Below, in pieces: positions 29,501-51,963 of a stretch of DNA of 64,000 nt. The DNA comes from Eledone cirrhosa (Eukaryota). Under the pieces are notes generated by a model. The model did not search any database and was not told where the DNA came from. It saw only the letters and a program-made list of their open reading frames with translations. The stretch spans positions 100,006,001 through 100,070,000 of the forward strand of contig OZ024740.1 of NCBI GenBank assembly GCA_964016885.1, written 5' to 3'. How positions within the stretch are numbered: position 1 is the first letter of the stretch; each line of letters begins with the position of its first letter. The position numbers were made by a program, and so were the translations under genes.

Positions 29501-29974
29501 ACTTTTTTCTTTGATGCTTTCATTTATTAACAATGGCCTCACATGATGTGTATGTCTATCATAGAGAAATACATATTTTGTAACTAATCTGGAGGATGAT
29601 GTACTCATGGCATGTGTTGGCCCTCTAAGACACATATACACACATACAACTGTGGACAATAATTGTTCCAGTTGTGCATTCCACAGACATCTGTACTCTT
29701 ATCATAGTTTTAAATACAATTCAGCATGATCCAGTGATTAATAGGGCAGCCCTTTCACTTACAGGTACAGTTCATTGGATGGGCTTCCAAACAGTTTCTG
29801 TTGATGCATTCTTTTCTCCCATGGCTTGTGTTGATGTGAAGCTATGGTAAGTGATATTTTGTCATTTTGTCCAAGATACCATACAATGGGATTAAACCTG
29901 AAAATTTACGACTCTGGAGCATGATTAAACTATGCTGCATCCGCACACACACACATACATACATACATGTATAT

Positions 29975-30016
<42 letters not shown>

Positions 30017-30375
30017 TTATTAAAATAACAGATTAAAGTTTAAGCAAAGAATCGCTGCTTTCACCCTTAATGGGATATTCTGAAACTAAAAAATCAATCT
30101 GTGAATGCTGAAGTAAATATTTAAAAACCCGTTGCAGCCGAAGGAAGATAGGAAGATGATACTTTGGTTTGTGGAAAGTTCCCTGGCAAAGACCGGATAA
30201 AAACGAAGATAATACGTCATTATTTGGAGCGTTGAGAACAATTACCCGCAAAGACAAAACCACGTATATGGTATAACCGAAGTTGTAGACTAACATTTTA
30301 GTCTTCAAATTTATTATTATTACTATATATATATACGATATTAATAAATGGAAACTATATTTATAAAACCATATT

Positions 30376-30440
30376 TATTTCATTATACATATTTCAGGGA
30401 TACCAAATTAAATTATGGTATGCCTTCATCAGACAAAATA
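30376..30440 (-). ncRNA. Type I hammerhead ribozyme-like motif (palindrome left arm)
   Basis: Exact reverse complement of 30572-30636. Confidence 0.75.
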
Positions 30441-30571
30441 CAATATATAACAGTTTTACAAATAAGCTTTGACGTACCCTTTTAAAATGCGACCATCTGG
30501 TGGCCTCCAAAAATAATGGTCGCATTTTAAAAGGGTACGTCAAAGCTTATTTGTAAAACTGTTATATATTG

Positions 30572-30636
30572 TATTTTGTCTGATGAAGGCATACCATAAT
30601 TTAATTTGGTATCCCTGAAATATGTATAATGAAATA
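30572..30636 (+). ncRNA. Type I hammerhead ribozyme-like motif (palindrome right arm)
   Basis: tattttgt-CTGATGA-aggcatacca/tggtatccct-GAAA-tatgta-TA-atgaaata. Core intact; predicted cleavage after AUA at 30628. Confidence 0.75.
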
Positions 30637-30763
30637 AATATGGTTTTAAAAATATAGTTTCCATTTATTAATATCGTATATCTACTCCAAATACTTGTTG
30701 AGTGCTTTATATCAGTTATAAAAATATTTACTTGTTGTATCCCAACAATTTAAATAGAAGTTT

Positions 30764-30847
<84 letters not shown>

Positions 30848-31352
30848 TATGTAAAATCCTGACCGGAGAACGAAGCAGTTTTGGCTTGTGTGTTCAGCAG
30901 GCCTTTTCAAGGGTGTAGTAATATTTGTAGGGTTTGAAAATAGATCACTGGTCTTGGTAGCGCTTTGATTTAATTTATCAGTGTAGTAAGCTGGTCTGAT
31001 AGAGAAAGTGGGTTCCCAGACAGTGGTAAGTGTATCTGGAAAAGCAAGGGGTCTGGAGAAGGAAGTAGTGTGGGTGGGGGTGGGGTGATTGATGGGTAGG
31101 AGTGAAGTAGGAGGAGATGGGCAATGGGATCAAACCCAGAATCATTGACATGATACTATATTGATTGATTAATTCTTTGTTTGGAGCCAGGAACATTTTA
31201 AAGAAATATGAGTGTCTGGGAGATATGGTAGAGGCATTACCCCTTTTGTCACCATATTTATTTATAATGACAGACAATGCATGTGATTTTCAAATAAGGT
31301 TGAAAATAATCAATAATTTGGGGGTATTTAGTAAAATAACAAATCTTCTCAT

Positions 31353-40009: not shown

Positions 40010-40480
40010 GTATTGCCACAACCACTGTCTTTTATGATATCTATGATTAGTTAATCTCTCATCAGTGACAATCACTTAACAGGTAGTGAGATGATAATAG
40101 ACTAGAGCTTATATAGATTTTGCATGATGAACATTTGCTGGAGAAGCCAATTTGCACATAGCAAATAGACAAACTTGGCTGGAAATGTTCATTTGCCTGT
40201 AGTGTGAATTTGGCTGGTTATAATCAATTGGCAATAGCCCGAAGATAGCGTTAAGCATAGTAGGCATGTATACGAAAACATATACTTTATGTTTATATAC
40301 TATATGTAAATGAGCATTTCCAGCAGATAGTTTTTATTTTCTACATGCAAATGAGTATTTTTAGCAGATGTTCATCACTCAAAATCTATATAGGCTGTAG
40401 TTTATTTTCATCTCAGTACTGAATGAGTGAATGTCTCTGAAGAGAGATTAACATATCTTGAAACAGCTGTCTGGCATTCT
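40010..40480. repeat. Diverged inverted repeat (fold-back element 3)
   Basis: ~40010-40202 vs ~40300-40480; e.g. gttaatctctcatcagtgacaatcac pairs with gtgaatgtctctgaagagagattaac. Confidence 0.85.
40429..40479 (+). ncRNA. Minimal type I hammerhead ribozyme with palindromic stem III
   Basis: gaatgtct-CTGAAGA-gagat(taacat)atctt-GAAA-cagct-GTC-tggcattc. GUC at 40469-40471; ACAGCTGT is a palindrome. Confidence 0.8.
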
Positions 40481-43286: not shown

Positions 43287-43563
43287 CTGGCTTGATTTCT
43301 ACAGCTGGATGCCCTTCCTAACACCAACCTCATTTACAGTGAGTGCTGGGTGCTTTTTTTCCCATGGCACCTCCACGACCACTTTACAGTGGAATGATAT
43401 GGACCCCAGTCCCTATTATCTCATTTCTACAGCTGAGTAAACTGGAGCAATGTGAAATAAAGTGTCTTACTCAAGGAAACAACACATCACCCAGTCTGAG
43501 AATTGAACTCACAACCTTTCGATTGCAAGTCCAATGCTCTAACTACTAAGCCATGTGCCTCCA
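43287..43563 (-). mobile_element. CORE-like RTE-partner SINE, 3' truncated
   Basis: Matches 11170-11443. Confidence 0.85.
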
Positions 43564-51320: not shown

Positions 51321-51963
51321 ATACATCTCTGAGACTATGTATACATAATTGTTTAGATGAGTTGATAACACAAGCATATAAAGGCAAAGAATAATTCAAT
51401 GTTCAAATGTGATTTTATAGTCCACAGCGAGATAGGTAAAAGACAGTTCAGATTTTAATTCAATTGGTAAAATTCCAACCACTGTTTACATTTTCAGAAT
51501 GGAGATATTTGGACATGTGGTTGGTAAATAATTATGTTATTTATGTTGTTCAATAGATTCTGAGGAAATCAATACTGAGGAAATGTATTTTCTTACTGTA
51601 TTGATAGAAACATTTGTAAATCAATTATATAATTTAATGTAATTTAATCCTCGTTATTTTATTCATTTTATCTATCTCTCTCTCTCTCTATATATATATA
51701 TATACATATAGGTGTGTGTGAATATTCTCCTTAGCTCAGCAATTCAGTTACTTACTTTAAAACATGCAATGATTGGCATCAGGATAGGAGAGCATCATGC
51801 AATACATATATACATGTTTGTGTATATATATATATATGATGATGATGATGATATATACAATGATATTAAATAAATGGAAACTATATTTATAAAACTATAT
51901 TTATTCTATTATGTATATTTCAAGGGTACCAAAATTTCCAAACAAATTAAATATCTCTTCTAC

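Follow-up and report, generated by a model that had tools for sequence, protein, structure and literature searches.

A hammerhead-bearing palindrome in Eledone cirrhosa, probably two head-to-head 3′ ends of a Hydra-type Penelope-like element

The window analysed here, a stretch of 64,000 nucleotides of the Eledone cirrhosa genome, carries a near-perfect DNA palindrome with a hammerhead motif on each strand. Judged by its sequence, the locus is almost certainly a stump of a young, autonomous Penelope-like element (PLE) of the Hydra type. We propose that the palindrome consists of two 5′-truncated 3′ ends of this protein-coding element, lying head to head in a (TA)n microsatellite, and that they probably arose, likely in one insertion event, when both cut target strands primed reverse transcription at two fixed sites in the RNA, 86 nt from each other. 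Hundreds of such stumps exist and this one is ordinary; the family is young and abundant enough for its insertion structures to be counted. Inverted, one-tailed ends of PLEs have already been published; the contribution of this family lies in two fixed 3′ ends that overlap the (TA)n target, a one-tail rule supported by counts, and arms that in 24 of 42 short pairs are not nested in one another. A literature search for a counted one-tail rule or for double priming in PLEs gave only the papers cited here, and its coverage was mostly without subscription journals, so earlier publication is possible.

As the initial annotation had described, the palindrome is 351 bases long, with arms of 166 bp each (30331-30496 and 30516-30681), a spacer of 19 nt (30497-30515) and a single, internal mismatch between the arms (30363 A/30649 A). 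Among 42 family arms this site is T in 41 and A in one, making the right arm the deviant from the family. The length given for the 19-nt loop was correct, but its larger part, 30501-30515, is ordinary sequence of the element and belongs to the right arm. The one-sided extension of the right arm likewise exists; it is, however, not ~40 nt long but 86 nt, reaching 30767 and followed by (AT)n. The resulting parts are listed in Table 1, where element positions (+/-) are numbered from hammerhead C3. All but 4 nt of the untailed arm lies within the tailed one, and the CTGG filler likely stems from templated insertion or from a jump over a CCAT repeat. The tailed arm begins at -79 and the untailed arm at -64; the locus lacks the Inr-like site. 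The sequence of the tailed arm recurs in long ORF-bearing copies, both at their 3′ end and ahead of the ORF. Of the arms that possess either fixed end, 142/151 adjoin (AT)n, a preference for insertion into (TA)n; a target-site duplication is unreadable inside such a microsatellite.

Table 1. Parts of the palindromic insertion, in window coordinates
Feature	Positions	Strand	Basis or remark
Left part of (TA)n target	30324..30330		Border with element blurred by TATAT overlap
Untailed arm, PLE 3′ end (pLTR), -64 to +101	30331..30496	-	100% identity to natural copy L017 over the span
Minimal type I hammerhead, mirror copy, predicted cut after 30384	30376..30440	-	Exact core match 30432-30384
Junction filler CTGG, 4 nt, matching antisense element -83 to -80	30497..30500	-	Sequence
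Tailed arm, PLE 3′ end, -79 to +187	30501..30767	+	98.9% identity to L017
Minimal type I hammerhead, predicted cut after 30628	30572..30636	+	Motif and covariation
86-nt tail, the 5′ UTR in full-length tandems	30682..30767	+	34 read-through copies
Right part of target, (AT)16 then (AG)23	30767..30844		Sequence

A protein search of the species' own genome, together with 14 regions, gave full-length copies with the order pLTR, tail, ORF of 735-745 aa, 3′ UTR and pLTR, in a unit of ~3.8-4.2 kb that includes a 3′ UTR of ~1.7-1.9 kb. In all five copies checked the frame is open, with YRDD at 352 and VVY..YVG at ~620, motifs that identify a reverse transcriptase (RT) together with a GIY-YIG domain at the C terminus. 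All five translations also contain DKT (not DKG) at residue 118 and, along with the C-terminal endonuclease (EN), a CxCX5C linker in the form CNCRNKSNC or CNCRDRSKC. The EN has no CCHH and a single Cys in the GIY-YIG core; its conserved E and N are flanked by CxxC and CxH, which read CDLCIEE and NLFSCCRH. At the N-terminal RWK position, four of the five copies have RWR and one has RSR, a conservative variant. Pfam and PDB sequence searches with the ORF returned nothing significant; a protein search returned 236 relatives at E<=1e-20 among 7,998 scored, the best with 39% identity over the full length. The hammerhead lies in the pLTR on the sense strand of this parent element. Partial tandems of the form pLTR+tail-ORF-3′UTR-pLTR were found at loci L094, L095, L098 and L105. 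In full-length tandems the tail runs on for 47-48 nt to the ATG of the ORF, with 34 exact read-through copies, and is thus the start of the next unit, that is, the element's own 5′ UTR. PLE-like ORFs of other families lie beside some copies (L105:7766-9001 (-), L064:3670-4548 (-) and L066:6114-6782 (+)).

By its motifs, and by reference proteins compared by eye, the family fits the Hydra clade (Craig et al. 2021, PMC8557442), of which Hydra-1_Obim and Penelope-13_HM are examples. The family and the clade share a single ORF with RT and C-terminal GIY-YIG, the DKT, CxCX5C and CxxC/CxH motifs around E and N without CCHH, a sense 3′ hammerhead whose small helix III is palindromic, and the (TA)n target. 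The clade's elements are generally <3 kb, a descriptive tendency that is not diagnostic, whereas the units here are longer; the clade has RWK where this family has RWR, and the ten positions of stem II with their conserved C.C are unlike the Hydra clade examples. By eye, the hammerhead differs from all those in supplement S2 of the paper, Hydra-1_oBim included, indicating a different family. Penelope-13_HM has an inverted 5′-truncated copy (PMC8557442 supplement S1).

Two fixed 3′ ends characterize insertions of this family. We sampled the first 100 exact-core matches on contig C1, taking 1.5 kb flanks for 30 of them and flanks of up to ~5 kb for the others, and mapped 158 arms near those cores, older relatives included. 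The ends lie 86 nt apart, 151 of the 158 arms terminating within +95 to +105 or within +176 to +187; among the 100 exact-core matches, +101 is the exact end of 51 and +187 that of 39, with no end at the cut site +48, in a sample whose requirement for an intact core makes 3′ ends upstream of +48 invisible. Hammerhead cleavage was rejected as the source of the insertion ends, given this absence of ends at +48 (0/100) and of any 5′-end pile-up at +49. Both fixed ends have 5-6 nt in common with the (TA)n target (CG-TATAT and GC-ATATAT), although at the tail end of the older L105 subfamily this overlap is imperfect. The 5′ ends, for their part, pile up at -90 to -81 (25/130 arms, against 1-6 per neighbouring 10-nt bin), at an Inr-like TCACT that adjoins a micro-palindrome, and this cliff at -89 may be a product of the nearby micro-palindrome instead of a transcription start.

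Head-to-head pairs numbered 59, of which two were dropped before counting (L158, an inverted duplicate of L157, and L160, with overlapping alignments) and 4/57 were unclassifiable. Exactly one arm is tailed in 51 of the 53 classed pairs (P=1.6e-13 against 0.5), the two exceptions being L175, a pLTR internal to a tandem, and L155, from an older family; 40 further arms had no partner within the flanks analysed. The initial annotation was correct on the Penelope-like origin, the inverted pLTR ends, the one-sided tail, the minimal type I hammerhead and its predicted cut after 30628. At 33 short junctions we found microhomology of >=2 nt in 17, fillers in 13, and blunt joins or 1 nt in three. Templated fillers are typical of polymerase theta end joining.

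These observations suggest the following course of insertion. The GIY-YIG domain would cut both strands of (TA)n; one target end would prime at +187, on RNA GCAUAUAU, and the other at +101, on RNA CGUAUAU, probably helped at both sites by pairing with the TA repeat. Both cDNAs would extend toward the RNA 5′ end, likely the Inr-like start at -89, and their truncated ends would then be joined by microhomology-type end joining. We regard such double priming as the probable mechanism and favour it over snap-back of a single cDNA because of the two fixed, target-overlapping ends, the 51/53 one-tail count and the non-nested arms of 24/42 short pairs. Whether the whole family is a readable record, in which one complex uses two fixed (TA)n-pairing RNA sites, one for each strand, with cDNAs running to the pLTR-internal start at -89 and the stumps then joined, is in our judgement an evenly balanced question. 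If it is true, a single mechanism would explain why the pLTR is inverted, why the tail is one-sided and why (TA)n is preferred. Predictions testable in the published in vitro PLE assay follow from the one-tail rule, from the two ends that match the target and from the 5′ cliff.

Snap-back, or self-priming, we consider unlikely, though it has real points in its favour. Here the cDNA would start at the tail end, fold near the micro-palindrome at -86 to -79 and copy itself, the endonuclease would resolve the product at +101, and later central deletions would create the asymmetry, which is close to models in PMC3846280 and PMC8557442. Such a course accounts for one tail per pair and for subfamily variants shared by the arms. 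Junctions do recur at ATCCGGAT or ATCCAGAT (L109, L147, L151, L144 and L171), and the ATCCGGAT micro-palindrome is the centre of 3/6 symmetric short pairs. These six symmetric pairs among 42, and the tiny local inverted pieces at L116, L148 and L178, fit fold-back and count against double priming, and at the present locus the untailed arm is nested in the tailed arm save 4 nt. Across the 42 short pairs, however (after the two drops), it is the untailed arm that extends further 5′ in 24 and the tailed one in 12, with both level in six, and five pairs do not overlap at all; a single fold-back cDNA cannot yield an untailed arm that exceeds its template, unless the centre was later deleted. Long palindromes do lose their centres asymmetrically, which could mimic pairs with neither arm containing the other. 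Also against snap-back stand L067, with a short tailed arm opposite a 3.4-kb untailed arm, the lone untailed copies L163 and L169 (-89 to +101), flanked by (AT)n on both sides, and the two start sites seen in vitro (PMC11167929).

The initial annotation had taken the palindrome for a coding-free fold-back retroelement. A separate, non-autonomous palindromic element of this kind, whether fold-back or retrozyme, that spreads as a unit would suit the abundance of short palindromes genome-wide, a few of which share a common centre, and yet we hold it to be very improbable: most centres differ in position and filler, junctions varying by locus; arm lengths form a continuum between <100 nt and 3-4 kb with the ORF included; copies with the full RT-GIY-YIG ORF have identical ends and tail; and no retrozyme-type tandem monomer array of the family was seen in the loci analysed. 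Retrozymes form tandem arrays (bioRxiv 10.64898/2026.07.22.740005), and in place of the head-to-tail monomers of a non-LTR retrozyme, each with a hammerhead and none with an ORF, we find head-to-head arms and an ORF-bearing parent. Since (TA)n draws many insertions, and several loci have more than one, the arms could also be two independent insertions in one microsatellite, or the product of later recombination or conversion. This too is most improbable given junctions without (TA)n, the one-tail rule, and the distribution of variants in 21 pairs, where subfamily variants are shared by both arms in 12 cases and unshared in one, while private differences are unshared in 37 and shared in three. 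The latter ratios point to one source element and independent decay afterwards, with no sign of conversion. An assembly or chimera artefact, finally, deserves almost no credence: each arm terminates precisely where elements of the whole family do, the two differ at a single base and their flanks are dissimilar, the same asymmetric design recurs at hundreds of loci, and, among contigs from four of five public runs, those of X1 and X2, possibly from the assembly's own sample, show the untailed end at 30681 entering (AT)n.

Inverted pLTRs and a one-sided tail are standard PLE features (PMC8557442 and PMC8969392), and PMC8557442 poses the formation of PLE inverted repeats and tails as an open question. 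For rotifer PLEs with a TCACT Inr and junction palindromes, self-priming was proposed (PMC3846280). Inverted-pLTR insertions described in that paper (Arkhipova et al. 2013) and by Craig et al. (2021) are like ours in the head-to-head copy, the tail at one end, the junction palindromes and the Inr-like TCACT in the pLTR; their tail measures 30-40 nt against 86 nt here, and in our family the one-tail rule has counts behind it, while the geometry of the arms speaks against self-priming alone. The Poseidon element PAc of Anolis (Frangieh et al. 2024, PMC11167929) cuts and extends both target strands in vitro, with two RT starts that bound the tail and with hammerhead cleavage dispensable. Our family shares the two starts bounding the tail, the AT-rich target and insertion ends that are not set by hammerhead cleavage. 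The PAc starts, however, lie inside the ORF at an AC-rich stem-loop and have no target homology, whereas both ends here are upstream of the ATG and have the 5-6 nt (TA)n overlap. LINE-1 twin priming also produces an inverted 5′ part with junction microhomology, from a second primer at an internal RNA site, and its inversions are not known to overlap; in our family, by contrast, a fixed second site and arms that overlap in most cases yield a palindrome.

A DNA search of the own genome with the palindrome gave 760 candidates, and the 40 scored were all 98-100% identical, many with an inverted partner. The 49-nt ribozyme core has 1,312 exact genomic copies (0 for the reversed control). Exact untailed ends number 2,022 genome-wide and tailed ends of one variant 1,384. 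Counting palindromic copies, as the initial annotation had proposed, gave at least 664 head-to-head centres for the family and its subfamilies, mostly with different junctions. One insertion cluster occurs twice, inverted and ~60 kb apart (L157 and L158, at about 211.60 and 211.66 Mb of contig C1), and is either a segmental duplication or an assembly duplicate.

Each arm carries the hammerhead in the form first described, with an intact CUGAUGA/GAAA core, a ten-position stem II, an 8-bp stem I and a tiny palindromic stem III. On the + strand, the sequence reads CUGAUGA at 30580-30586 and GAAA at 30617-30620; stem II pairs 30587-30596 with 30607-30616, C30590.C30613 included; stem I pairs 30572-30579 with 30629-30636, including two G.U pairs; and the self-complementary helix III, AUAUGUAU, occupies 30620-30627 with a 2-nt loop. 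The recommended comparison with Rfam hammerhead models came out negative, with 0 matches in the whole window at gathering score and in 30000-31000 and 30555-30655 at E<=10, in the context of minimal hammerhead variants without a normal helix III. Matches to miRNA-precursor models of Rfam, below gathering score, were set aside as generic hairpin matches. We accordingly base the ribozyme call on the motif together with its covariation. A motif scan of the loci analysed gave 365 matches, 106 of them distinct, from which 19 hand-picked subfamily representatives were aligned. The core columns CUGANGA, GAAA and NUH are invariant across these 19 natural variants. Two-sided changes occur in 12/20 pairs, and in 12/17 pairs of helices I and II; 93.9% of alignment cells are paired, compared with 36-54% in slid controls, and 0/500 shuffles scored as high, a count that is not a probability because the aligned sequences are related and hand-picked. 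This pattern supports the stems of a type I hammerhead with predicted cleavage. Several other hammerhead families, with different stems, intact cores and a palindromic helix III, are present in the loci analysed (L098:2533-2587, L138:2023-2077, L124:1085-1154, L020:281-349, L059:3169-3247 and more), indicating that the genome has many PLE or retrozyme families.

The C.C mismatch of stem II (alignment columns 23 and 49, window positions 30590 and 30613) varies little if at all, whereas the pairs next to it covary, and may be a functional tertiary contact. It is present in all 1,312 exact-core copies and kept across diverged subfamilies, and the G.U in the flanking stem is family-wide as well. 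Imperfections shared by the arms had been read as a sign of recent snap-back or conversion; being family-wide, they are uninformative and demonstrate neither. Metazoan minimal PLE hammerheads (Cervera and De la Pena 2014, PMC4209133) and those of non-LTR retrozymes (bioRxiv 10.64898/2026.07.22.740005) have the same type I topology, long stem II and dimer-suited palindromic helix III, with a bulge plus G10.1-C11.1 where this family has A10.1-U11.1. Close opposite-strand hammerhead pairs were already noted in Schistosoma (PMC4209133).

Folding energies bear on the expected activity of this copy. Competition between hairpin and ribozyme folds, as anticipated, holds in outline, but the balance is lopsided: the whole-palindrome hairpin has -266.7 kcal/mol against -172.5 with the ribozyme enforced, making it 94 kcal/mol more stable, and pairing probabilities of stems I and II in that fold are 0.0. 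MFE folding of a single arm did not recover stem I (probability <=0.02), so folding energy lends no support to a monomer ribozyme. Hammerheads with such a helix III (2-nt loop, self-complementary) were found to be inactive as monomer and weak as dimer (PMC4209133), and we predict that the family hammerhead works only as a dimer or with the protein of the element. A read-through transcript from either side would make the antisense arm first. Given the stability of the hairpin and a helix III form that was inactive as monomer (PMC4209133), we expect the hairpin to silence the hammerhead of this copy in such a transcript, leaving it without catalysis, and the locus is likely an inert by-product. 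If transcribed, the hairpin centres of the family would be a sizeable potential source of dsRNA; among the public sequencing runs listed, none was of RNA. At 29765-29846 (+), 480 bp upstream of the palindrome, lies a candidate exon with good splice signals and a 26-aa open frame, for which a Pfam search gave a weak match at best (E=0.13); if the exon is real, the palindrome would be intronic and read through.

Elsewhere in the window, an older relative of the pLTR end (85% identity over 81 nt) lies between (AT)n runs at 51853-51933 (-), and a loose hammerhead-like motif from a regex scan, probably due to chance, at 51548-51630 (+). A degenerate inverted repeat at 40045-40457 (159-bp arms, 75%) is overlapped at its right end by a hammerhead-like CTGAAGA..GAAA motif at 40437-40471; the two are possibly an old PLE-like insertion, or chance. 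A tRNA-like Rfam match at 43492-43555 (-), of 34.9 bits and within a dispersed repeat, is probably the head of a tRNA-derived SINE.
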